Of a DNA stretch of 64,000 bases, positions 30,993 through 57,878 are shown in pieces. Location: sequence record PP301343.1. One strand, given 5' to 3'. Under the pieces are notes generated by a model. That model was given only the letters and a program-made list of their open reading frames with translations. It did no database searches and was not told the origin of the DNA. Every line of letters starts with the position of its first letter. Position 1 is the stretch's first letter. The translations under genes were made by a program, and so were the position numbers. Source of the stretch: Escherichia phage UE-M6.

Positions 30993-33146
30993 TTATTTGC
31001 CAGCGTAGCGTTTAGCCACGGTGACCATTACGGTTGCATTCAATTCATCATCTGGTAATGGATTAGCCAGTTTCTTATTGAATGTGTGGACGGCTTGCTG
31101 TACTTGAGCAAAGTCCCAACCACTGTCAACCAATGCCAGTGCGTACTTAATCATTTGATTATTACGATTACCGGAGGCAATACGACTAGCGAACCAACGC
31201 TCCAGATTATCCAACGACTGTACTTCCTTCATCTGGTTCTGGAACTGCTCGTTCTTACTAGTACGAGGAATAAAGTCACGCACATCTAACAGATTCGCAT
31301 CAAGATTGTAATGATAGGAACCAGTCTCACAGGACATCCACTTCTTGGCTCGTTGGTTAGCAGACTCATCTGTTTCAAATGGTAGCCAAGCCATAACGTT
31401 ATTCATGAACTCTTTGTATTCCTCAGTGTCGAGGTGTAACTCATAGTTCATTGGAATAATCAGACGGAAGCGGTTCTCTTCATCAGTATGACGCTTGGTG
31501 GTATAGGTCATGAACTTATATTCCTTCATTAGTTCATGGCACGTATGCAGGGGTACTCCACCATCACAGTCAATAACAATCATGTTAAATCCTGGGATAA
31601 CATTTTCTTCAGAACGATGCCCATTCTTCATGTGATGGTTTACCCAGTGCATACCGGGAGCTTGGGTTAATACATGCAACTGGTCGAACGGTACACGTTC
31701 ACCAATGTAGTCATAAGCAAAGCTATCACTATACGCCACAATCATCTCATTGATGTCTGTCTCTTTAAGAGTTTCACCACGGAAGAACTCAATACCTTCA
31801 TTGAAGGTCTTCTTAATGATGATGTGCTGCTTGTAACCCCATGCTGTAGCAAGAGTCATCATCTCATTACGAGCTGCATTACCACTCTTATAGAATGGTA
31901 AAGACTCCACCAAATCAGCATGGGTTACTTCTTTACCTACAGAAGCAATGTACTTAGCCAGCTTCACATAAGCCTTCTCACGATTGAGGATTGTCTGAAA
32001 TGCTGCTCCAGATTCTTCTACAAGCAGAATTGCTTGTTTAAGGTGGGTCATCTCAATGAATGAACTTTGGTCAACAAACGCCAGTGCACCTGCCAGCTTA
32101 AGTGCTTTGAAATAACGGTGAGAAATTTCAGCTTTACGAATATCTTCATGGTCAGCCATAGCTTCTGCTTGCTTCTCACAATCAATTTTGTAAGCAATCA
32201 GAGCAATACCCACGGCATCTTCTACAACCATCTTAAAACCAAACAGGTTTGGGTCAGCCAGACTATGGAAATGGTTAGCCCACTTACCAAGAGTCTGTAC
32301 GTTATCTTGTTTAATCAGGTTACGGTAGATTTCTTCCGGGGTTAGTGTTGCATGTGCTCTCTTGTCTAAGTGACCAGTAGCAAACAGACAGCGACGTGCA
32401 TACCCTATATCGAGAAAGCCATAGAACTGGTCTTCAGTCTGACCACCATCCAGCAGCTTACTCGGAGTACCGAACAGCAGCAGGTTAGTTGGAGTTTTTC
32501 CATCCAATTCTTCACCACGAACGCTTTCAGCAGTATTCTTGGTTAGCTTCTGTTTTACTTTTCCCTGGTCATATAACTCCAGGAATAGGGTTAGTACATC
32601 CATGTTAGCCAACAGGTTCGAACCAATTTCATCAATCTGAAGATTGATTGAACCACACCCAGCCATTAACAGCTTATGCCGTAGCTGTTTAACTGCTGGT
32701 GGAGTACCAGAGTCAAACGTAAACGGATATGCCCCGGCACGTTTATACTCTGCTTCAACTTTATCAAACTCTTCCTGCTGGTCAGTACCCTGACGAGCAG
32801 AACGTTCGTTAGCAATCTTCCATAGACGATCATTTGCAATGACGGGCATGGTGTCTTCCATAAAGCGTTTACGGAAGCCAGACATGAACCCGTCTTCAAT
32901 GATATTTACTGAGTGACCTTTACCGAAACCAGATGTAGCCAACGCTATAGCGTAGATGTTTACCGGCAGGTCACCACGGTCTTTAGTTACAATGGTTGCA
33001 CCCATGCAGGATGCCATTTTAGCCAAGAAGTAGGCTACTTCGACACGGAAGAATCCCCGGTCATTATTCTGGGTTTTATTGCAGAGCACATCTACGATTT
33101 CTTCAATCGCTGGATGGTGACTGATGTCAGTAAGGTCGATACTCAT
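30993..33146 (-). CDS. Putative DNA primase (N4 gp43-like position)
   Basis: 717-aa ORF placed by synteny between the ATPase and nuclease genes; no motif verified by eye. Confidence 0.45.
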   Translation of the reverse strand: MSIDLTDISHHPAIEEIVDVLCNKTQNNDRGFFRVEVAYFLAKMASCMGATIVTKDRGDLPVNIYAIALATSGFGKGHSVNIIEDGFMSGFRKRFMEDTMPVIANDRLWKIANERSARQGTDQQEEFDKVEAEYKRAGAYPFTFDSGTPPAVKQLRHKLLMAGCGSINLQIDEIGSNLLANMDVLTLFLELYDQGKVKQKLTKNTAESVRGEELDGKTPTNLLLFGTPSKLLDGGQTEDQFYGFLDIGYARRCLFATGHLDKRAHATLTPEEIYRNLIKQDNVQTLGKWANHFHSLADPNLFGFKMVVEDAVGIALIAYKIDCEKQAEAMADHEDIRKAEISHRYFKALKLAGALAFVDQSSFIEMTHLKQAILLVEESGAAFQTILNREKAYVKLAKYIASVGKEVTHADLVESLPFYKSGNAARNEMMTLATAWGYKQHIIIKKTFNEGIEFFRGETLKETDINEMIVAYSDSFAYDYIGERVPFDQLHVLTQAPGMHWVNHHMKNGHRSEENVIPGFNMIVIDCDGGVPLHTCHELMKEYKFMTYTTKRHTDEENRFRLIIPMNYELHLDTEEYKEFMNNVMAWLPFETDESANQRAKKWMSCETGSYHYNLDANLLDVRDFIPRTSKNEQFQNQMKEVQSLDNLERWFASRIASGNRNNQMIKYALALVDSGWDFAQVQQAVHTFNKKLANPLPDDELNATVMVTVAKRYAGK

Positions 33147-33658
33147 TTGATTAATCCTATGCTCTTATTAGTGACGGCATATTCTCCGAAGTATTTTACG
33201 GCAGCTAAGTCGTATACTTTGGCAGCTTCAATTGCTTCCAGGAATACACCTAAATGAATTGATTTACGGTTTACTTTGATTTTGGCTAAGTAGTTACCCC
33301 TGAACTTAGTAACACCCATAAAACCACTGGTGTTGTTTTTATTCAGTCCACGGTTAGCACCATTGGTGCTTTTATCCGCTTCCCTTAGATTGTCTATCCA
33401 GTTGTGGTGACGTATGGTGTCTTTATGGTCTATTAAACCAGTAGGCCACATACCGTACACGTACAACCAAGCTAACCTATGGGCAGCTTCCCGTTTGGCA
33501 TCAACTGTTATGTAGAGATAACCGTCACTGTTATTGAGCGACCCAGCAACACTACCGACAGGTGTTCGGTTACTGAGGGAGATGCGGCGAGTAAATATCC
33601 CAGTAAGTGGGTCATAATGCAGCAACTCTTTTAGCCGTTGCTGAGTCAGCTTAATCAT
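33143..33658 (-). CDS. HNH homing endonuclease with AP2 DNA-binding domain
   Basis: HNH_3-like motif YDPLTGIF...IDHKDTIRHHNWIDNLRE and AP2-like C-terminus; start at the internal Met; inserted between the nuclease and primase genes. Confidence 0.75.
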   Translation of the reverse strand: MIKLTQQRLKELLHYDPLTGIFTRRISLSNRTPVGSVAGSLNNSDGYLYITVDAKREAAHRLAWLYVYGMWPTGLIDHKDTIRHHNWIDNLREADKSTNGANRGLNKNNTSGFMGVTKFRGNYLAKIKVNRKSIHLGVFLEAIEAAKVYDLAAVKYFGEYAVTNKSIGLIK

Positions 33659-34635
33659 GATGGAAAATATCTCTCTCTTTGTTTGCAAATGGTTGCGACA
33701 GGGCAGTATAAGCAACGCTTAACCTGCCCCTCCACGACCTTGATAGCACCCTTGCCACCTTTTTCAGCCATGAAGATACGGGCAGATGCCATATCGTCAA
33801 AGTTTTTGGTACTTCTGGCTCCAGGCATATCTACCTTAGAAGCATCAGAGAAGTATTTGAACTGTGGCTCTGTTCGCCACAACTCCTCGTCAGTACATTC
33901 AGGAATTTCCTCTTCAGGAGCATCCCAGTACTTTTCGATGAGATGTATCTTCTCTTCTACCCAACGTTCAGTCTTATCGACAGATAACAACGGAATATCC
34001 TTATGCATAATACGATTAGCAGGATAGTTCGGATTGCTATTAGCCATGTGTTTCATGAAGTCAGTGAAGATGTAGTTAATACGGATTACATCCTCGGTAA
34101 TGATGTCGTTGTGAATCCAACGGTACAAGCTACCTTGCATCTTGTGTTCATCATCACGGGAACCAGCAACCCAGGAATAGGTTGAGGTAGACTTAAAGTC
34201 TTGCAATAGACCTTCTGTTACGATGTCGAACTTACCTCCGATAGTCCAACCCTTAACTACCCTGGTTCCACGTTGTTCAATGTAGATTGGGATAAGGTCA
34301 GGGTTAGCATCAAAGTCTGCTTTGGTTGGGTTAATGACTACTGCATCAATTACTCGCTGAGGATAACCCAACTTTTTCAATGCAGTCTTATGGCCTAACT
34401 TCCAGGCTTTCTCAATAGAATCGTGTAAGCCAGTACCCATTGATGTGGAGACGAAATCCATAACATCAATAGACTGGTCACTAAGGTCTACACGATGTTT
34501 CATGACGATTTGCTTAAGTGGCTTAAGCAATGTAGTTACAGACAGATACTTGGGATTGTCTACATAATCATACTCGTCATGTAATAGCCATACAGCCAGG
34601 GCCAGCGAGACATCATGGTTGTTGGTTATCTTCAT
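33655..34635 (-). CDS. Putative PD-(D/E)XK-type nuclease with C-terminal Cys cluster (N4 gp42-like position)
   Basis: 326 aa; C-terminal CLYCPVATIC cluster reminiscent of Cas4/RecB-like nucleases; in the replication module. Confidence 0.4.
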   Translation of the reverse strand: MKITNNHDVSLALAVWLLHDEYDYVDNPKYLSVTTLLKPLKQIVMKHRVDLSDQSIDVMDFVSTSMGTGLHDSIEKAWKLGHKTALKKLGYPQRVIDAVVINPTKADFDANPDLIPIYIEQRGTRVVKGWTIGGKFDIVTEGLLQDFKSTSTYSWVAGSRDDEHKMQGSLYRWIHNDIITEDVIRINYIFTDFMKHMANSNPNYPANRIMHKDIPLLSVDKTERWVEEKIHLIEKYWDAPEEEIPECTDEELWRTEPQFKYFSDASKVDMPGARSTKNFDDMASARIFMAEKGGKGAIKVVEGQVKRCLYCPVATICKQRERYFPS

Positions 34636-48839: not shown

Positions 48840-49346
48840 TTATTTTGAAGGTCTAGCAGCTACTGGTTTGTTTTCCTGATTCTGATACTTACCATTGTAA
48901 TTAGCAGGTTCTTGAACCAGATGAAATAATACTTGAGCTATCCCAGCACCAGCCGGGATATGCAATTTCTTACGACCGTGATAGACCAGTTCGAGGGTAA
49001 GATACCCTTTCCATCCTGGTTCTATTACGGTATTGAACACTGATAATGCACGTCTTGCCCATGTAGACTTATCGTGAACGATTGCTACACAGGACGGGGA
49101 CATGTTGAACTTCTCAATTGCTGAGGCCAAGGCGAACTTACCGAGATGGCGTGATACTTGATTTCCATCAACGACTTTCACCATTGGAATCAGCCCAAAT
49201 AAGCGATAGAAGGTAATATCTTGTTTGATACGAATATCATAACCAGCTTCACCTAATCCATAGCTTACACCATGCTCTGATACCTTATGGTCTGGGACAT
49301 CCAGCAACTGAGATGAACGGTATAGAGAATTACCATTAACAACCAT
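48840..49346 (-). CDS. dCTP deaminase / dUTPase-family protein
   Basis: Motif GEAGYDIR and later PAGAGIAQVLF resemble trimeric dUTPase/dCTP deaminase motifs. Confidence 0.45.
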   Translation of the reverse strand: MVVNGNSLYRSSQLLDVPDHKVSEHGVSYGLGEAGYDIRIKQDITFYRLFGLIPMVKVVDGNQVSRHLGKFALASAIEKFNMSPSCVAIVHDKSTWARRALSVFNTVIEPGWKGYLTLELVYHGRKKLHIPAGAGIAQVLFHLVQEPANYNGKYQNQENKPVAARPSK

Positions 49347-50521
49347 TATTTCATTCCTTTAGGGATATGAACTACCTCCCCAAAAGGTACGGTAGCATTG
49401 GGATTATTCAGAACACACCAGATGATAGGAATATCAAATGGTAATTCTTCCATTGGACGAACATACATATCGGAGAATATGATTGCAGCGGTTGGTTTAT
49501 TCTTAATAATCCACTCGCGTACTGGTTCCAGGTTTGTACCACCACGACCGGTAATCTTAATCTCTTCAAAAGTATCTTCTTCAGTGATGTCTATCTCTTC
49601 TTGGATAATATCGTCGAAGGTAATTAAGGACATCTTCTTAGGATTGAACTGGCTCTTAACGTAGGCAACCTCTGAGTTAAAACGCAGAGAGTCAGCACTA
49701 CTAATAGAACCAGATACATCCTCAAAGTAGGCTAAGTGTCGTAAGCGTCCTTCATCATCTTCCATGGAAGGTAGATAGATGTCAGTAAAACGACGGTTAG
49801 GTCTGGCCCACGTATAATGAGTATCGTCAATGTCGGTAAAGAAGTTCATGAGGACTTCCTGCCATGGAACCACTGGTTTAAGGAATTGGGTAATAACCTC
49901 TTCCATACGACCAGCACCCTTACCGGGCATCTGTCCACCAGCCATTTTCTGGCTCTGCATTGCTCGTACTACGTTGTTGACGACAGCACCCTGGGACTGC
50001 CCCGAAGTGGGGGATTTCATGTCGCCAGCAAGACCTGCTCCAGCACCCCCTGACGGCTTCTGCCTTTTCTGAGGGTTCTTCATCAGGTCATCGTAGATGT
50101 CTTCTTCGACCCATCCTTTATATTGAGGGTCTTTGCAAATACCTTTATCAATGCCAGTGAACTTGTAACCGTCTTCCTCTAACTGAAGGTTAATGAAGTG
50201 GTCACATGCCTGATTCCAGATTTCTGGGTCACGGCTTCCACGACGGATGCCATGCAGATATGCCACATGCCAAAGTTCATGCATTAACACTGTTTCTCTG
50301 GCATCTGGACACATCCAGATAAAGAAATCTGGATTGAAGTGAAGTTCTATCCCATCAGTACATGCAGTGGGACAATTCTCACGTTTCCATGAGAACTTAA
50401 GACTACATAGTAATGAACCAAAGAACGCAGCACTGCGTCCGAGAAATGCGTTGGCCTGTATTCTATCGTATTCCCTCATTAACTGTTCATCAGTGAGGTT
50501 ATGTGGTGGTATGTTATTCAT
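49346..50521 (-). CDS. VWA-domain protein with N-terminal HExxH metallopeptidase-like region (N4 gp25-like)
   Basis: HELWH motif in the N-terminal half; MIDAS-like DVSGSIS in the C-terminal half; partner of the upstream AAA+ ATPase. Confidence 0.6.
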   Translation of the reverse strand: MNNIPPHNLTDEQLMREYDRIQANAFLGRSAAFFGSLLCSLKFSWKRENCPTACTDGIELHFNPDFFIWMCPDARETVLMHELWHVAYLHGIRRGSRDPEIWNQACDHFINLQLEEDGYKFTGIDKGICKDPQYKGWVEEDIYDDLMKNPQKRQKPSGGAGAGLAGDMKSPTSGQSQGAVVNNVVRAMQSQKMAGGQMPGKGAGRMEEVITQFLKPVVPWQEVLMNFFTDIDDTHYTWARPNRRFTDIYLPSMEDDEGRLRHLAYFEDVSGSISSADSLRFNSEVAYVKSQFNPKKMSLITFDDIIQEEIDITEEDTFEEIKITGRGGTNLEPVREWIIKNKPTAAIIFSDMYVRPMEELPFDIPIIWCVLNNPNATVPFGEVVHIPKGMK

Positions 50522-50997
50522 TAAGATGCTCCATGATTTATATGGTAACCCAATAATTTTTCTGCTTCCTTTCTGGCTGTAATGGCCTCTTGTTTACTGT
50601 TAAACTTTCCTAAGTAAATTTGTTTACCATTATCATTTATATGGGCAGCCCAGATTTTATCTCGGGTGTGCCAGTAAACTCCTGTCACACCTGATGTATT
50701 TGTAATTCTCTTGGTTTGATTTTTGCAATTAATCGAGTTTGTTACTAAACGGAAATTGCTTGGGTAATTATTTAATCTATTATGGTCAATATGGTCTACC
50801 TGCATACCGTCAGGAATTGGTCCAATCTCCATTTCATAAATTATGCGGTGAACTAAATGCATTTTCTTGTTACATTTAACACGCAAATACCCACTGTTAT
50901 CCAAACAACCGGCAATGGCACCTGCTTTTACGCAGCCCCTGCTTACTTTCCAGTAGAGGGAACCATTGCTATAAACAAATAGTTCATGCCAATTCAT
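50521..50997 (-). CDS. HNH homing endonuclease with AP2 domain
   Basis: HNH_3-like VDHIDHNRLNNYPSNFRLVT and AP2-like C-terminus; inserted exactly between the AAA+ and VWA genes. Confidence 0.75.
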   Translation of the reverse strand: MNWHELFVYSNGSLYWKVSRGCVKAGAIAGCLDNSGYLRVKCNKKMHLVHRIIYEMEIGPIPDGMQVDHIDHNRLNNYPSNFRLVTNSINCKNQTKRITNTSGVTGVYWHTRDKIWAAHINDNGKQIYLGKFNSKQEAITARKEAEKLLGYHINHGAS

Positions 50998-51001
50998 TAT
51001 T

Positions 51002-52054
51002 TTATCCGTGAATGTAACGAGAGATATTAGCAGCAGCCTTACGCCATTCAGGTGTAGCCTGAAGTTCTGGCAATGCTCTGCCTACTGTACGGAAGTACAG
51101 AATCTTATGGGTGAACGTTTTAAAGCGTTCAATGTACTGAAGAACATCAGAGAAGTTTTCTTCAGTAGTTTTGTTAGCCAGGTGGTTAACAGTAGCCCAA
51201 CACAGGTTGTTATCTTCCGGTAGTGCACAGCCCAGAGGGTCTTTGACTACTTTCTCAATCGTAATCATACGATTGTATACCTGAGTGAATTGAACAAACT
51301 CTGTAGCCTTACCAGCAGTAACATGTCCTGCGTAGTAGATAGAATCTTCATCTGGCAGAGCACCTTCAGGACGGTTCTTGAGGTCTTTGTTAACAAAGTC
51401 CCAGGTGCGTGGGCAACAGAACGTTTTGTTCTTATGGGCTGGGTCGAAGTCATGCAGATAACCTGGGTTAGCATGTAAGAATGCAACCAGACGTTCATCC
51501 CATTCTTGTGGAATCATTACATCTTCAACAAAGATGTCGAAGTTAAGTTCCATTTCGAAGTGAACCACGCGAGACTGCATTGCAGTGCCCAGTGGGTTAA
51601 CAATGGCACGGTCAGTAGCTTTGTTACCAGCACATATAATCATCACATTAGGATGGAGTTTTTTCTGACCAGTCATACGGTCCAGAATCAGTTTGTATGC
51701 AGCAGCTACTACTTCTTTTCTGGCTGAGTTGAACTCATCAAGGAACAGGAGCCAACCATTATATCCTTCCGGTATCTCATCCCCCTCAATAGGGAATAAG
51801 TCAGCGAATGGGATAAACTCTGCACGGTCACCATTACGGAATGGTAGACCAGACAAATCCTCTGGGGCAGAAGTAGACAGACGATGGTCTATCAGTTTCA
51901 TACCAAATTCTTCTGCAACAGAGCGAATAATTGCAGATTTACCCATTCCCGGTGATGAAGTCAGGAACGGTACGTTACCTGCTTGCAGGGCACGGATAAT
52001 AAAGTTACGGGCCTGACGTGTATTACATACGGTCAGTGAGTCAATGCTCGCCAT
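51002..52054 (-). CDS. AAA+ ATPase, MoxR/CbbQ-like (N4 gp24-like)
   Basis: Walker A SPGMGKS, Walker B LLFLDEF; 350 aa. Confidence 0.7.
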   Translation of the reverse strand: MASIDSLTVCNTRQARNFIIRALQAGNVPFLTSSPGMGKSAIIRSVAEEFGMKLIDHRLSTSAPEDLSGLPFRNGDRAEFIPFADLFPIEGDEIPEGYNGWLLFLDEFNSARKEVVAAAYKLILDRMTGQKKLHPNVMIICAGNKATDRAIVNPLGTAMQSRVVHFEMELNFDIFVEDVMIPQEWDERLVAFLHANPGYLHDFDPAHKNKTFCCPRTWDFVNKDLKNRPEGALPDEDSIYYAGHVTAGKATEFVQFTQVYNRMITIEKVVKDPLGCALPEDNNLCWATVNHLANKTTEENFSDVLQYIERFKTFTHKILYFRTVGRALPELQATPEWRKAAANISRYIHG

Positions 52055-53148: not shown

Positions 53149-53982
53149 TTATTCTACAACAGTAATAGCGATGGTTACATCGACCTTACCGTTGGTAACT
53201 ACTACAGAAGTAGCTTCACCAGCAGCCACTGGTTTAACCGTCAATACGTTACCGGCAATGGTAGCCGTAGCACGGGCAGAATCTGGGGTAGTCTTAATAG
53301 ACAAAGTACCAGCAGATGAACCAACAGGCATAGCAGCAATGGTTACAGTCTTACCGGCAGCAGTATCATCAGCAACAGACAGAGCCAGTGAATCAGGAGT
53401 AGCTACCAGTGAGCTTGCTTCATAGTAGCCTACTGCCAGCAACGACGTATCTTCTACAGTGGTTCCATTGGCATCAGTAACAATCACTTTATAAGTACCA
53501 GCAGAAGCAGCGGTTACGTCATTAAGGGTTAATGTTGCAGTAGCAGCAGATGGGTTAGTACTAGAGCTAATATCAGTGAATGCTGCACCAGCAGTATCAG
53601 CTTTGAACTGCCATTTATAAGTAAATGGTGCTTTACCGCCTGCTACATCAACATGCCAGTTAATATCTTCGCCTTCGATAGCAGAGATTACACGAGGCAG
53701 TTTAGTAGCAACAGTCAGTCGTGGAGTAGCTTTCATGTCAATAGAGATGGCTTGCATATCCACGATGTTGTTAGGCCAGAAGCCTGCTTCAGCAGGGTTT
53801 TTAGCAGAACGTTTATACAGCAGATCACGTACACCGTGAAAGATAACTAAACTATCCGGGTAAGTGGCATCCGGATGCACAAAAGTACCTACCTCTACGG
53901 AACCACCCGGGATAGAACCCCCTGCATCCAGTACAGTTGCAACATTGGTGGTTTTGTTAAAACCTACTTTTAAAGTTGGCAT
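53149..53982 (-). CDS. Ig-like domain structural protein (capsid decoration, N4 gp17-like position)
   Basis: Start at the internal Met (MPTLKVG) with a GAGGAA RBS; Thr/Ala/Val-rich Ig-like repeats; flanked by strong terminators; directly downstream of the RNAP II genes as in N4. Confidence 0.5.
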   Translation of the reverse strand: MPTLKVGFNKTTNVATVLDAGGSIPGGSVEVGTFVHPDATYPDSLVIFHGVRDLLYKRSAKNPAEAGFWPNNIVDMQAISIDMKATPRLTVATKLPRVISAIEGEDINWHVDVAGGKAPFTYKWQFKADTAGAAFTDISSSTNPSAATATLTLNDVTAASAGTYKVIVTDANGTTVEDTSLLAVGYYEASSLVATPDSLALSVADDTAAGKTVTIAAMPVGSSAGTLSIKTTPDSARATATIAGNVLTVKPVAAGEATSVVVTNGKVDVTIAITVVE

Positions 53983-54028
53983 ATGAATTTCCTCATAAGT
54001 AAATAGCAGGATTAGTATACATGACATG

Positions 54029-54058
54029 TAAAAAAATAAACCCTCCGTTAAGAGGGTT
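54029..54058 (-). terminator. Rho-independent terminator upstream of the decoration-like gene
   Basis: aaccctc/gagggtt hairpin followed on the - strand by tattttttt. Confidence 0.55.
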
Positions 54059-54254
54059 AGTTGTTTACACAGTAGATAGCAAAAGCTATCCATCCTGCCA
54101 TTACAAAGCATCCTAGTGAGTATGCTCCATAGTAGCAGTAAGCAAACTTAGACTTGTGGGCACGAACTATCGTAGCCAGAATCAGTACAGATAAAACTAT
54201 CAGTATTAGCTGAGAGATTACTTCAAAATTGATAAGCATAGTTGCTACCTCCAA
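54057..54254 (-). CDS. Small membrane protein
   Basis: 65 aa, two hydrophobic helices; 3' end overlaps the terminator. Confidence 0.35.
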   Translation of the reverse strand: MEVATMLINFEVISQLILIVLSVLILATIVRAHKSKFAYCYYGAYSLGCFVMAGWIAFAIYCVNN

Positions 54255-54297
54255 GCAAAAAATAAAGCCCCACTCCCGAAGGAATGAGGCTAGTTTA

Positions 54298-55515
54298 TTA
54301 ACTTAATGCATAATCTGTTTCTAGAATGTCTTGCCAGAGGCTGTCATCCAGCTTACCAGCAGAGAACTCTTGTCCCAGTACTTGAGACAGAATGAAGCCC
54401 AGTAAGTCACTCTTAGCAATGTCAGACAGAATCTGATTGTACTGACGACGCAGGTCATTACCATAGTTAGGGTGGCAACGGAAGCAATCATGTACAGTCA
54501 TTACAGGGAATGGTTTCTTAGGCATAGTGTCGATCATATCTGCTACTACTTGACGGTCTACCAATGCAATAGTATTCGGGTCAAGGAAGTCTAGGATAGA
54601 TAGCGACAGGAATCCTGACCTTTCATAATGATTCCAGATTTCCATAGTCTTCTCTTGGTTCCCCTCAATAACGGGGTATTCACTTGGCCCGATATCGCAC
54701 AGTTCCCGTACATAGGCAACCAGTTTAGGGTCGAAGTTACAACGACGCAGCATCTCACGTACTACCATCCCATCAATAGAGTGAGTGATGTTAGCAGAGA
54801 GCATACGGGTCTTCTCTTCAGTACCCTGAACCATACGAGTGATGTCAAATGGTTTACCCAAGAAGTTAACAGTCTGTACTTCAAGAACCATGACTTTAAT
54901 GACAGCATGGAAGTTGTCAGGGAGTACCCATATGTAACGGTTAGCATCCGGGTTACCACATTGCAGTAAGAACTTGTTAAGTGCCCAAGGACCACTTGCA
55001 ACTGTTTCCATTACATTTTCAAAAGTCTTGAGACGGATACCTTCCCCGAATACTTCTTTAGGTTTGGCTTCTGAACCGTAGAATGCAGTCATAACTGCCT
55101 GCTTGGTATCACTACGTTTAATACGGGATGCTTCACCAAGGATGTCCAGCATCTTGTGATATATAACTGTATAAGCATCACGTCGTAATGGCTTACCATT
55201 CTCTCCCATGTAATTAACTACGTTACACAGTTCAGCAGCAGAGCGGTCACCAGTCAGGCAGGCCAGTAACTGCAAGCCTGATGATGTAGCATCCAGGGCT
55301 ACGGCATATCCGATAGGCTTACCAGCTTTCATATCTTTCCATGCGTTTACACCAGCATAGAACAGTGCAGATTCCTCAGCTTCATCTACCAGATTAAGCA
55401 AGTTAGCTTCATTCTCATCGAACCAAGCAATACGCTCATCCCAGGTCTTTTTATCCAGACCATAGTTATTGGCGATGTCTACTTTCAGGTATTCTTTAGC
55501 GGTTAACAGTTGCAT
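54298..55515 (-). CDS. RNA polymerase II catalytic (large) subunit, T7-like (N4 gp16-like)
   Basis: Motif A-like DATSSGLQ and motif C-like HDCF; start at the internal Met with an AAGGAA RBS. Confidence 0.8.
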   Translation of the reverse strand: MQLLTAKEYLKVDIANNYGLDKKTWDERIAWFDENEANLLNLVDEAEESALFYAGVNAWKDMKAGKPIGYAVALDATSSGLQLLACLTGDRSAAELCNVVNYMGENGKPLRRDAYTVIYHKMLDILGEASRIKRSDTKQAVMTAFYGSEAKPKEVFGEGIRLKTFENVMETVASGPWALNKFLLQCGNPDANRYIWVLPDNFHAVIKVMVLEVQTVNFLGKPFDITRMVQGTEEKTRMLSANITHSIDGMVVREMLRRCNFDPKLVAYVRELCDIGPSEYPVIEGNQEKTMEIWNHYERSGFLSLSILDFLDPNTIALVDRQVVADMIDTMPKKPFPVMTVHDCFRCHPNYGNDLRRQYNQILSDIAKSDLLGFILSQVLGQEFSAGKLDDSLWQDILETDYALS

Positions 55516-55561
55516 TTTATGTTCCTTAGCGTCTGAGCCATTTGGCTCGCATAGTGGGTAG

Positions 55562-56068
55562 TTATTGACCGTGACGGTTAGTATAGCCAGCACCATTCTG
55601 GTTCAAGGCTTCTAACATGTCGGCTCGTGCATCACATGCTTGTTGGAATGCGAACTCGTAGCCGTATTTCTTAACTGAGAATACTTTACACCTCTGTTTC
55701 TTTGTGATGTTGTCCGTACATGTAGCACGCCAGAATAACCCCTTTGGTGAATCCCATAGAGATACACCAGTTACCCCAGATTTATTGTCTGAACGTTTAG
55801 TAGAGTTACGCAGGTTGACTACAATGGGAACACATCGCAAGTTACACCAGCGGCAGTCCGTTCTGATACCGTTGATGTGGTCAATTGTATAACCAGCAGG
55901 GATAGATCTATGCTTCATTTCCCACAACCAACGGTGAAGGTATAAGATTTTATTTCCACGAGAGATGCGAATGTACCCAGTGGCACTATTCGCTGCCTCC
56001 GGTGGATGGGCTACAGCAAGTTCATCAACTGACTTGTTCCAGTAGCCCATTGGCATACGCTCTTTCAT
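55562..56068 (-). CDS. HNH homing endonuclease with AP2 domain
   Basis: HNH motif IDHINGIRTDCRWCNLR and AP2-like SGVTGVSLWDSPKGLFWRA; inserted between the two RNAP II subunit genes. Confidence 0.75.
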   Translation of the reverse strand: MKERMPMGYWNKSVDELAVAHPPEAANSATGYIRISRGNKILYLHRWLWEMKHRSIPAGYTIDHINGIRTDCRWCNLRCVPIVVNLRNSTKRSDNKSGVTGVSLWDSPKGLFWRATCTDNITKKQRCKVFSVKKYGYEFAFQQACDARADMLEALNQNGAGYTNRHGQ

Positions 56069-56886
56069 TAATCCTCATTAACAAGTTCTTTTTCTGCAAA
56101 TTCTAGGACTGCTTTATTCCAAGAAGTCCCTTGGTAGTTACAGTGATAGCCCTGAGCGTAAGTACGCCCACGTTTGTCATATTTGTGACCCAGTGAGAAG
56201 TTATTACCTTCTTTGGTCACTAACTCCATTACTTCTTTAGCGGTACGGCTGTATTTCTCAAAGGCTTTAACACGCTTCTCATAGTCCTGACGGGTTTCAC
56301 CCTCTTTAGGCTTATCCATGTTAGGACGAGAGTCTTTTACATAGTTAGCAACGTCCCAGTTAATACTTAGACGCTGATTATTCATACGGTTGATATGGTC
56401 AAGACAGACATCCATCTCATGATGGTTCTTCTTGAGGATGATACTTCCCCTGCTCTTGTAGTAACCTGTGTCACGGTTACACAGAACAGGCTTAGGAGCA
56501 CTTACGATGGGTAATGGATACTGGAATGCTTCCAGTTCCATCTGAACATCTTCACTAATCTCATAGATAACACCGAACTTGTCGATGGTAGGGTCATAGT
56601 TGAAGCAGTCATTCTCTGCCATCTTATACAGACAGTCAGCGATGTACTGAGCATCATCTGAATGGCTCATAAGAGAGCCAATCATAGTCTGAAGGTCAGC
56701 ACGTTTATGTAGGGCAATCTGCACCATTGCATCAATGAGCAGCTTATAATCAATTTCCAAATAGGCAGCGAATGCCTTAAAGTCAATTTCTTCGGAGTCC
56801 TCAAATTCCTTCCTCATGCGAGGGAGTAATTGATTTTTGTTGAAAAGAATTTCGAGTTGCTTCTGATGTTCAATGGATGAGTACAT
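56068..56886 (-). CDS. RNA polymerase II small subunit, T7-RNAP N-terminal-like (N4 gp15-like)
   Basis: Segment DKRGRTYAQGYHCNYQG resembles the T7 RNAP DWRGRVYA...NPQG region; AGGAGA RBS; preceded by a hairpin promoter. Confidence 0.7.
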   Translation of the reverse strand: MYSSIEHQKQLEILFNKNQLLPRMRKEFEDSEEIDFKAFAAYLEIDYKLLIDAMVQIALHKRADLQTMIGSLMSHSDDAQYIADCLYKMAENDCFNYDPTIDKFGVIYEISEDVQMELEAFQYPLPIVSAPKPVLCNRDTGYYKSRGSIILKKNHHEMDVCLDHINRMNNQRLSINWDVANYVKDSRPNMDKPKEGETRQDYEKRVKAFEKYSRTAKEVMELVTKEGNNFSLGHKYDKRGRTYAQGYHCNYQGTSWNKAVLEFAEKELVNED

Positions 56887-56915
56887 CGCTTATTCTCCTA
56901 AATGTGATTAATAAC

Positions 56916-56934
56916 CAAAAGCTGCGGAGCAGCT
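56916..56934 (-). promoter_or_regulatory. Putative N4-type vRNAP hairpin promoter upstream of the RNAP II genes
   Basis: Template-strand hairpin agctgc-GGA-gcagct (6-bp stem, 3-nt loop) with CCAAAAG flank; loop-centre G at 56927, stem G three positions away; predicted +1 about 56916. Confidence 0.5.
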
Positions 56935-57202
56935 ATTACCTAACGTTTAGTCCAAAAGGTAATACGAATACTGTTCTCTTGACCAAGGTAGTCAATACGT
57001 ACATATAAACCATTACCACTAAACTCGTTATTTTTCTTCTGGTAAGGTCATACCAGACTACGCATAGGTATTTTAATTAAACCAGATATGTGACCTAGTT
57101 TAGTACGATCCTTTAGTTCGTTTTGTAATGCACAATAGATATCATGCCGTGTAAGTGCTCTGGCTCTGACTTGAGCAGCCCATAGTTCTTCATAAGTCAT
57201 TA

Positions 57203-57553
57203 TTAACTCCAGTAGTTGTAAGCATCGCCTAAATGTTTACGCCATGCTTCGGGTAACAGTACATTTCCAGTTACATTGATGAACTGGTATGGGTCCAGGT
57301 AGTCATTACTCATGACTTTGAAATCCCATTGTGGATTGGCAGATGCATAGGCAATAAAACCTTCAATGAAGCCATAAATAGCACCTTCTTTAATACGGTT
57401 ACCATTGCCATCTCTTACCGGGATAGCAAAGCTATTACCATAGTGACCATAGGCCATACCCCAGCGAGCACCATGTTTCTTATAAGCTAACTTGGCAGAA
57501 GCATTGGTATGCTGCCCAAGCGTATTAGTAGTAAATACTAAGATTTCTTTCAT
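57203..57553 (-). CDS. Hypothetical early protein
   Basis: 116-aa ORF, Gly-rich, first gene upstream of the RNAP II promoter region. Confidence 0.45.
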   Translation of the reverse strand: MKEILVFTTNTLGQHTNASAKLAYKKHGARWGMAYGHYGNSFAIPVRDGNGNRIKEGAIYGFIEGFIAYASANPQWDFKVMSNDYLDPYQFINVTGNVLLPEAWRKHLGDAYNYWS

Positions 57554-57557
57554 TTAG

Positions 57558-57878
57558 TTAATCCTTTGGTTTTAATACCTGGAATGCGAACACAGGACGT
57601 TTACTACGCCACTGGTTCATAGCTAGTTCACTAGTTTCAGAACCATCATGTAAGTCATAAATGAATGAGATTACATAGTCTGGTTCTTCCGGGAAGTTCT
57701 CTGTAGAGAATGGTAGACCCGATTCTTTAAGGATAGGAACCAGTGGAGATTCAGCATTGCAGTAGAGGGTAAATTCTTCATTGAATGCCTGACTTGTTTG
57801 AGATACGTAATCAATATTACGCATCATTTTATCTACATCTGTAAATGTAGAATCATGAACTACTAGAATAGTTTTCAT
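57558..57878 (-). CDS. Hypothetical early protein
   Basis: 106-aa ORF. Confidence 0.45.
   Translation of the reverse strand: MKTILVVHDSTFTDVDKMMRNIDYVSQTSQAFNEEFTLYCNAESPLVPILKESGLPFSTENFPEEPDYVISFIYDLHDGSETSELAMNQWRSKRPVFAFQVLKPKD

Follow-up and report, generated by a model that had tools for sequence, protein, structure and literature searches.

The genome of Escherichia phage UE-M6 (PP301343.1), a G7C-like Gamaleyavirus of the Schitoviridae, carries an open reading frame (ORF) between the genes for the two subunits of its N4-type RNA polymerase II (RNAP II), and the locus raises the question of whether this ORF is a mobile homing endonuclease gene, an inactive insert or a resident gene that serves the polymerase. 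The stretch analyzed here, hereafter the window, is 64,000 nt long and ~99.5% identical to Escherichia phages UE-M3, UE-S5a, and UE-S5b. Three co-directional minus-strand genes occupy positions 54298-56886 in the order RNAP1, homing endonuclease gene (HEG), RNAP2.

The gene, its protein and its transcriptional context

The features of the locus are given in the order of transcription, with positions in the window:

56920..56934, minus strand: terminator-like hairpin and T-run upstream of RNAP1, the upstream boundary of the RNAP1-HEG-RNAP2 unit
56068..56886, minus strand: RNAP1, RNAP II small subunit gene, N4 gp15-like, 272 aa (phrog_2166 'N4-like RNA polymerase', 5.5e-116; annotated as RNAP1 in UE-S5a)
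56069..56143, minus strand: recoded 3' tail of RNAP1, HEG-linked, a candidate target or immunity region (comparison with UE-S5b)
55477..56142, minus strand: minimal HEG-linked haplotype block, the putative co-conversion tract, common to the window and UE-S5a and absent from UE-S5b and PBM-3 (three-way informative sites)
55562..56068, minus strand: HEG, predicted free-standing HNH-AP2 homing endonuclease gene, 168 aa plus stop, ATG start (ORF list, Pfam, PHROG)
55805..55942, minus strand: HNH (beta-beta-alpha-metal) nuclease domain, aa 43-88, with D63, H64, N76, and N88 invariant
55598..55765, minus strand: AP2-type DNA-binding domain, aa 102-157, a three-stranded sheet and a long helix
55516..55561, minus strand: 46-nt spacer before RNAP2, with a small hairpin (GAGCC-AAAU-GGCUC) at 55535-55548 and an AAGGAA Shine-Dalgarno sequence
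54298..55515, minus strand: RNAP2, RNAP II large subunit gene, N4 gp16-like, 405 aa (phrog_2051 'RNA polymerase', 5.8e-175; Pfam RNA_pol, 4e-14; start annotated in UE-S5a)
54266..54291, minus strand: terminator-like hairpin directly after RNAP2, the downstream boundary of the unit; a terminator is annotated at the equivalent place in phage Jura

N4 RNAP II was reportedly characterized by Willis and colleagues in 2002, in work that PMC5418858 cites, as a heterodimer of gp15 and gp16. The initial annotation had recognized the flanking genes as the two subunits of such an enzyme, and the profile matches bear this out. On phrog_414, a T7-like RNAP profile, RNAP1 covers positions 228-425 and RNAP2 positions 427-596, and a chimeric RNAP1/RNAP2 query spanning the junction gives a single-piece alignment to T7-like RNAP genes. 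Therefore, with RNAP1 ending at 425 and RNAP2 beginning at 427, the two genes encode colinear halves of an N4-type RNAP II. The mechanical ORF call for RNAP2 comprises 432 aa from a start at 55596, whereas homologs and annotation back the ATG at 55515 (MQLLTAKEY, 405 aa), which has the AAGGAA Shine-Dalgarno sequence ahead of it. The placement of the HEG, from the stop codon of the gp15-like gene to just before the start of the gp16-like gene, had likewise been read correctly: its ATG (56066-56068) shares one base with the RNAP1 TAA (56068-56070) in a TAATG overlap, and its own TAA (55562-55564) is followed by the 46-nt spacer and the RNAP2 ATG.

The HEG protein matches the I-HmuI-like HNH/His-Me finger endonuclease family Pfam HNH_3 (PF13392) over aa 43-82 (E=2e-14, 53.3 bits against a cut-off of 24.8), Pfam AP2 over aa 105-151 (1.1e-6, at 29.2 bits just below the curated threshold of 33.3 bits), and phrog_99 (4.9e-33); a 168-aa ORF with such profile scores is therefore not a chance ORF. 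An AlphaFold2 model built with 50 homologs (mean pLDDT 86) has a beta-beta-alpha unit, a low-confidence linker (aa 89-101), and then three strands and a long helix. The four residues D63, H64, N76, and N88 are invariant in the alignment of 50 sequences, and alignment and model together give a beta-beta-alpha-metal fold with conserved catalytic His and Asn. The AP2 domain lies C-terminal to the HNH domain, which is the arrangement that marks the HNH-AP2 ('IPA-HNH') class. A sequence search of the PDB with the HEG protein found no solved homolog (best E=0.79, a coat protein). The label of a two-domain HNH and AP2 nuclease thus stands on the Pfam matches and the model; membership in the known class is supported, and nuclease activity is predicted.

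The Shine-Dalgarno sequence of the HEG, GAGGA (56072-56076), is embedded in the last RNAP1 codons (GAGGAT-TA-ATG). The motif GAGGAYTAATG occurs in four of the five nuclease-bearing allele types of Escherichia and Shigella phages, namely those of the window, metagenomic locus L014, the Mimir124 type, and pSb-1, whereas G7C reads GAGGATTAGGATG, and Jura and the Burkholderia phage HN03 differ too. Neither a sigma-70-like promoter nor a terminator-like site that would separate the genes was found inside RNAP1-HEG-RNAP2. N4 gp15 and gp16 are early genes, and the HEG, predicted to lie in one transcription unit with both subunit genes, should be made early along with them.

The spacer ahead of the RNAP2 Shine-Dalgarno sequence exists as two unrelated alleles (compared in the window, L003, L004, L007, and L031). 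The strong allele forms a 9-bp hairpin, GGCUCUCC..GGGGAGCC (dG -15.8, z -3.65). The weak allele, to which the window belongs, forms the 5-bp hairpin listed above, which is thermodynamically not unusual (dG -8.8, z -1.2). We considered whether the spacer hairpin is part of the HEG cassette and rejected this, since the two hairpin alleles assort independently of HEG presence.

The gene and its arrangement are already known. An identical protein (100%) at the same position between RNAP1 and RNAP2 is labeled 'HNH homing endonuclease' in the GenBank records of UE-S5a (PP175015, WVP99898.1) and UE-M3 (PP301342), although the slot between RNAP1 and RNAP2 is not discussed in the paper on the UE phages (PMC11927229). 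Amgarten et al. (2017, BMC Genomics 18:346; PMC5418858) called the organization 'G7C-type', noted zero to eight spacer genes between the RNAP subunit genes of N4-like phages, and proposed that an ancestral single-chain RNAP was split by a homing endonuclease. As a discovery, the HEG is therefore of little importance, and the details added here will hardly surprise a specialist: tract boundaries, a recoded RNAP1 tail that is replicated in a second genus, a dS contrast, a family-wide lineage anchored to RNAP1, competition of at least two nuclease families for the slot, and rare metagenomic single-chain N4-type RNAP II genes. The slot gene of G7C itself belongs to another nuclease family (193 aa, phrog_1035 'endonuclease VII', NUMOD1) and not to the HNH_3 plus AP2 type of the window; the closest G7C relative of the HEG protein is gp2.1 (47%), which is located elsewhere in that genome.

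Variation of the slot and its flanks

The interval between RNAP1 and RNAP2 was extracted from 18 loci. The slot is empty in EC1-UPM and phiG17 (55-56 nt) and in one distant relative (34 nt); elsewhere it holds ORFs of 37-38 aa, of 53 aa (ECBP1 and others), of 79 aa (PBM-3, UE-S5b), or of both 53 and 79 aa (IME11). The HNH-AP2 protein of the window type occupies the slot in the window, UE-S5a, and L014 (94% aa identity) among these loci. Mimir124 and L017 carry a second HNH_3 plus AP2 protein there that is merely 30% identical to that of the window, and pSb-1 and G7C carry the phrog_1035 'endonuclease VII'/NUMOD1 nuclease. Megablast spans suggest that ORFs of 53 and 79 aa are the most frequent slot contents in ~60 Gamaleyavirus records, just two of which have the window-type HEG. 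Queried with a protein that spans the junction, the Schitoviridae show a wide range of slot sizes, in agreement with the published account (PMC5418858), and a search of IMG/VR loci with RNAP1 returned 9 loci only, mostly copies of isolate genomes.

The ORF is thus sporadic rather than fixed at this position in all relatives. Close homologs were found in only 4 of 50,697 phage records; the HEG is present in the window, UE-S5a, and UE-M3 and absent from UE-S5b and PBM-3, whose genomes are 97-99.5% identical (99.5% for UE-S5b), as well as from EC1-UPM and phiG17. Enquatrovirus offers a second such pair, with Jura carrying the HEG and BEU44 an empty slot. That the polymerase is split with or without the insertion, as the initial annotation had held, agrees with EC1-UPM and phiG17, in which RNAP II is still encoded by two genes on either side of the empty slot.

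Sequence divergence between the window and the HEG-less UE-S5b is centered on the HEG. There are zero differences at 53909-55323 (~1.4 kb, on the RNAP2 side) and at 56564-57047 (~0.5 kb, RNAP1 and its upstream spacer), and the differences cluster at 55324-55527 and 56127-56563, flanking the replaced interval. A four-way comparison resolved the block 55477-56142. The stretch 56236-56563 is divergent in the window only: UE-S5a has the bases of the HEG-less phages there and differs from the window at ~13 RNAP1 sites. The tract of UE-S5a is therefore shorter than that of the window, and the two HEG-bearing siblings differ in tract length. Such a pattern of flanking markers is compatible with homing yet not unique to it, and a localized tract could also result from ordinary homologous recombination whose crossovers fell in the best-conserved sequence.

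The last 75 nt of RNAP1 differ between the window and UE-S5b by 29 nucleotides and 5 amino acids, whereas the preceding 45 nt do not differ at all; nearly all codons of the tail are altered, mostly synonymously. The window tail is matched at 100% only by UE-S5a and UE-M3 and at no more than 81% elsewhere. The next-best matches come mostly from slots with other nucleases (ST4, G7C, PW8), the small-ORF phages E20 and F22 align at 75%, and the majority Gamaleyavirus alleles (53-aa, 79-aa, empty slot) give no alignment. The pattern recurs in Enquatrovirus, where Jura, whose HEG is a 78% aa ortholog of that of the window, and BEU44 have flanks that are 97-99% identical, and mismatches between the two rise from 1-3 per 100 nt to 26 over the final ~100 nt of RNAP1. 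In both genera, a Ser codon of the tail is TCT in HEG-bearing alleles and AGY in HEG-less alleles; for example, the Thr-Ser codons are ACT-TCT in Jura and ACC-AGT in BEU44.

The left boundary of the recoded segment is similar and sharp in the two genera, lying 75-87 nt before the stop, after the DKRGRTY codons. It may reflect a nearby cut site, and resolution of a crossover in the most conserved stretch fits these alignments equally well. Comparison with insertion-free genomes, which the initial annotation had expected to define the target site, narrowed the probable target to the final ~90 nt of RNAP1 and did not give an exact site: the DKRGRTY codons just upstream of the recoded tail are identical in HEG-bearing and HEG-less alleles, and therefore the target cannot be pinned down. 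Strong recoding of the tail goes with the HEG in two genera, and the reason may be linkage by descent or immunity. One tail class is common to three different nuclease types, which would fit linkage by descent as well as immunity. We also considered an import of the window tail from an HEG-bearing Enquatrovirus allele. However, over 53 aligned nt the Jura tail shares ~77% identity with that of the window, which is no closer than the HEGs themselves (71% nt), and recent transfer of the tail across genera is unsupported.

The history of the HEG differs from that of its flanks. When the window is compared with L014, RNAP1 and RNAP2 have dS values of 0.66 and 0.55 and the HEG has one of 0.215, and HEG copies are therefore younger than their backbones; the HEG dN/dS of 0.126 in the same comparison shows that the protein is under purifying selection. 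Amino acid identity of the HEG against that of RNAP1/RNAP2 is 78 vs. 66/68% for Jura, 67 vs. 52/49% for L021, and 64 vs. 46/47% for L020, and further comparisons give 56 vs. 52/43, 53 vs. 54/53, 51 vs. 43/43, and 51 vs. 56/51%. The HEG thus exceeds its flanks by 10-18 points in three lineages and is about equal to them in three others. On these distances, the discordant history of gene and flanks implies horizontal spread of the HEG.

Orthologs of the HEG (51-94% identity) start between an 8-nt overlap with the RNAP1 stop and a 33-nt gap from it in nine divergent N4-like contexts, among them Jura, HN03, and metagenomic L014, L020, L021, L023, L025, and L026. Their distance to RNAP2, by contrast, ranges from 29 nt to ~2250 nt with up to eight other ORFs between. 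Therefore, the short distance to RNAP1 and the variable distance to RNAP2 tie the HEG to the 3' end of RNAP1 and not to RNAP2. Distant relatives (no more than 47% identical; G7C gp2.1 and P0047) are found elsewhere, near gp2.

Probable homing and its alternatives

Taken together, we hypothesize that the ORF is an intact, free-standing HNH-AP2 HEG that probably spreads by intronless homing and occupies the slot between the RNAP II subunit genes. The slot that is empty or otherwise filled in relatives, the divergent tract around the gene, and a dS below that of the flanks all point to the mobile element that the initial annotation had proposed. In a mixed infection with a HEG-less relative, the AP2 domain would position the HNH domain on the 3' end of the rival's RNAP1 or on the slot, the HNH domain would nick or cut the HEG-less genome within or close to the final ~90 nt of RNAP1, and recombinational repair from the HEG-bearing genome would copy the HEG along with the adjacent ~75 nt of RNAP1 on one side and the initial ~40 nt of RNAP2 on the other. 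Heavy and mostly synonymous recoding of the RNAP1 tail may protect the HEG-bearing allele itself. The direction of transfer, a gain of the HEG or a gain of the 79-aa ORF, is argued by parsimony alone.

I-HmuI, a characterized enzyme of the HNH_3 type, is a nickase. Since the characterized HNH_3-type enzymes, the other being gp210 of phage PhiPA3 (PMC11620839), are nickases, nicking would be the more likely chemistry of the HEG. UE-S5a and UE-M3, which carry the HEG, and UE-S5b, which does not, were isolated in one study on one host strain, and outside a tract of ~0.7-1.2 kb they are 99.5% identical; with these phages, homing, co-conversion, and competition by interference would therefore be directly measurable at an essential polymerase gene. 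Further, the presence of one HEG lineage at the same address over several genera bears on the published hypothesis that a HEG created the split N4 polymerase.

Known systems resemble the HEG in different respects. HNH-AP2 homing endonucleases were reportedly described by Magnani and colleagues in 2004, whom PMC10448857 cites, and to our knowledge no member of the class has been biochemically shown to home. I-HmuI is the intron-encoded HNH nicking endonuclease of phage SPO1 (PDB 1U3E); it has NUMOD and helix-turn-helix DNA-binding modules, whereas the HEG has an AP2 domain instead, and sequence similarity between the two is undetectable with phmmer. According to what is reported from Friedrich and colleagues in 2007, mobE lies between nrdA and nrdB in T4 and splits nrdA in Aeh1. 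Like the HEG, the mobE genes are free-standing HNH HEGs that lie between, or create, the pieces of an essential two-part enzyme, and they spread by intronless homing with co-conversion of flanks; they differ in that the enzyme is ribonucleotide reductase, the phages are of another family, and an AP2 domain is lacking. The Aeh1 case is cited by Amgarten et al. (PMC5418858). The 'IPA-HNH' class (Barth et al., 2023; PMC10448857) shares with the HEG an N-terminal HNH and a C-terminal AP2 domain, carriage by phages, and a location beside or inside essential genes, but the HEG of the window forms a separate lineage that is specific to the RNAP1/RNAP2 slot of Schitoviridae. Gp210 of PhiPA3 (Birkholz et al., 2024, Science; PMC11620839) is an HNH homing endonuclease that nicks the RNA polymerase subunit gene of a rival phage and gives its own phage a competitive edge in co-infection; immunity comes from synonymous recoding of the target. 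However, gp210 is intron-encoded, its phage is a jumbo phage, and its target is a virion RNAP of the multisubunit type, whereas cleavage and competition by the HEG are putative.

A more far-reaching possibility, which we regard as unlikely, is that the HEG lineage descends from the element that split an ancestral single-chain T7-like polymerase gene into the gp15/gp16 pair and still acts as a weapon. Early in a mixed infection, the HEG would then nick the rival RNAP II gene where the conserved C-terminal motif of RNAP1 is encoded, and the rival's middle transcription would be blocked while its genome is converted, as gp210 of PhiPA3 does to PhiKZ. If this were true, metagenomic single-chain N4-type RNAP II genes would be unsplit survivors, or re-fusions after loss of the element.

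Alternatively, the HNH gene might have been acquired once, through illegitimate or ordinary recombination, in a permissive intergenic hot spot and, inactive for homing, have been spread by general recombination. The slot does accept unrelated ORFs (37, 53, or 79 aa long), other N4-like phages have as many as eight genes there (PMC5418858), and mosaic boundaries are obtainable by recombination alone. However, an inactive passenger would hardly be expected to keep an intact ORF with invariant catalytic residues and the low dN/dS given above; one HEG lineage keeps to this junction in divergent metagenomic lineages and in no fewer than three classified groups while its downstream neighbors vary, and the RNAP1 tail is recoded in two independent pairs of HEG-bearing and HEG-less phages. 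We therefore consider a passive insert very improbable.

Domestication is very improbable as well. AP2 domains are ancestral to plant and apicomplexan transcription factors. This ancestry, discussed by Barth et al. (PMC10448857), would suit a DNA-binding or regulatory protein that serves as an RNAP II accessory factor or as a regulator of early or middle genes instead of a mobile nuclease. Such a role would also explain the long residence beside the polymerase genes, the strong purifying selection, a conservation of the HEG equal to or above that of its essential flanks across genera, the persistence of the lineage in the same slot over the Schitoviridae, and the predicted co-transcription with the RNAP II subunits; in G7C, a HEG paralog adjoins gp2, the RNAP II cofactor. 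Against it, the HEG is missing from the near-identical, viable siblings UE-S5b and PBM-3, most Gamaleyavirus slots are empty or hold small ORFs of no relation to it, D-H...N...N is invariant at the catalytic positions, and the dS below that of the flanks implies horizontal movement.

HNH endonucleases of this type are often intron-encoded, as is I-HmuI, and the split point is seamless against T7-like RNAPs (phrog_414 425|427, one-piece junction-spanning alignment), but a self-splicing intron or intein in one polymerase gene, with the subunits as exons or exteins, is effectively refuted by an Rfam search of 54000-57200 that found neither a group I/II intron nor any other RNA family at E<=1, by the RNAP1 stop and the separate Shine-Dalgarno sequence and ATG of RNAP2 in every cultured relative examined, those with an empty slot included, and by the heterodimeric nature of N4 RNAP II as known biochemically. 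That gp210 is intron-encoded in a vRNAP gene of PhiPA3 (PMC11620839) is the remaining point in its favor.

Fused polymerases, further HNH-AP2 ORFs and other mosaic patches

Among the best 150 representative clusters matching RNAP1, four are single polypeptides in which the N4-type RNAP II halves are fused by short linkers: P0068 (674 aa), P0133 (681 aa), P0168 (703 aa), and P0177 (648 aa). Each is closest (~40%) to a different split RNAP1, and P0068 is encoded by one uninterrupted ORF (L030:2086-4110) on a metagenomic contig of 4.2 kb. RNAP II is always split in cultured relatives, and the fused forms could be ancestral and unsplit or re-fusions. Enterobacter phage SABI, which gave a single tblastn piece, was rejected as a further fused RNAP II, as it has two genes with an in-frame 12-nt spacer.

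In metagenomic L025 (4014-6047), where the slot HEG is present, RNAP2 is apparently broken into pieces of 137 and 265 aa with a 188-aa ORF between them, and a tblastn match with RNAP2 spans the whole broken interval. This arrangement resembles that of ZC08, in which an endonuclease lies inside RNAP2 (PMC5418858).

The window contains two more ORFs of the HNH-AP2 type on the minus strand. The ORF at 50521-50997 (158 aa) is 34% identical to the slot HEG and is labeled 'HNH homing endonuclease' in UE-S5b; it lies between an AAA ATPase gene (51002-52054) and a 391-aa gene (49346-50521) that matches a VWA-like annotation in relatives, and shares start/stop bases with its neighbor. The ORF at 33143-33715 has an N-terminus like that of the Mimir124 slot nuclease (LKELLHYDPLTGIF) and overlaps both of its neighbors, a 326-aa gene (33655-34635) and a 717-aa gene (30993-33146), neither of which is annotated. 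Together with the HEG, these ORFs therefore bring the genome to at least three HNH-AP2 elements, each between adjacent genes.

Other patches of divergence from UE-S5b occur at some distance from the HEG. One mosaic patch at 57179-57562, ~1.1 kb upstream of the HEG, has ~28 differences in and around a 116-aa gene (57203-57553) and is followed by an alignment break at 57570-57571. Downstream of RNAP2, a capsid-decoration (Hoc/Big_2-like) gene at 53149-54111 has 18 differences at 53520-53638; its mechanical start (320 aa) lies well upstream of that of the 277-aa CDS annotated in UE-S5a.
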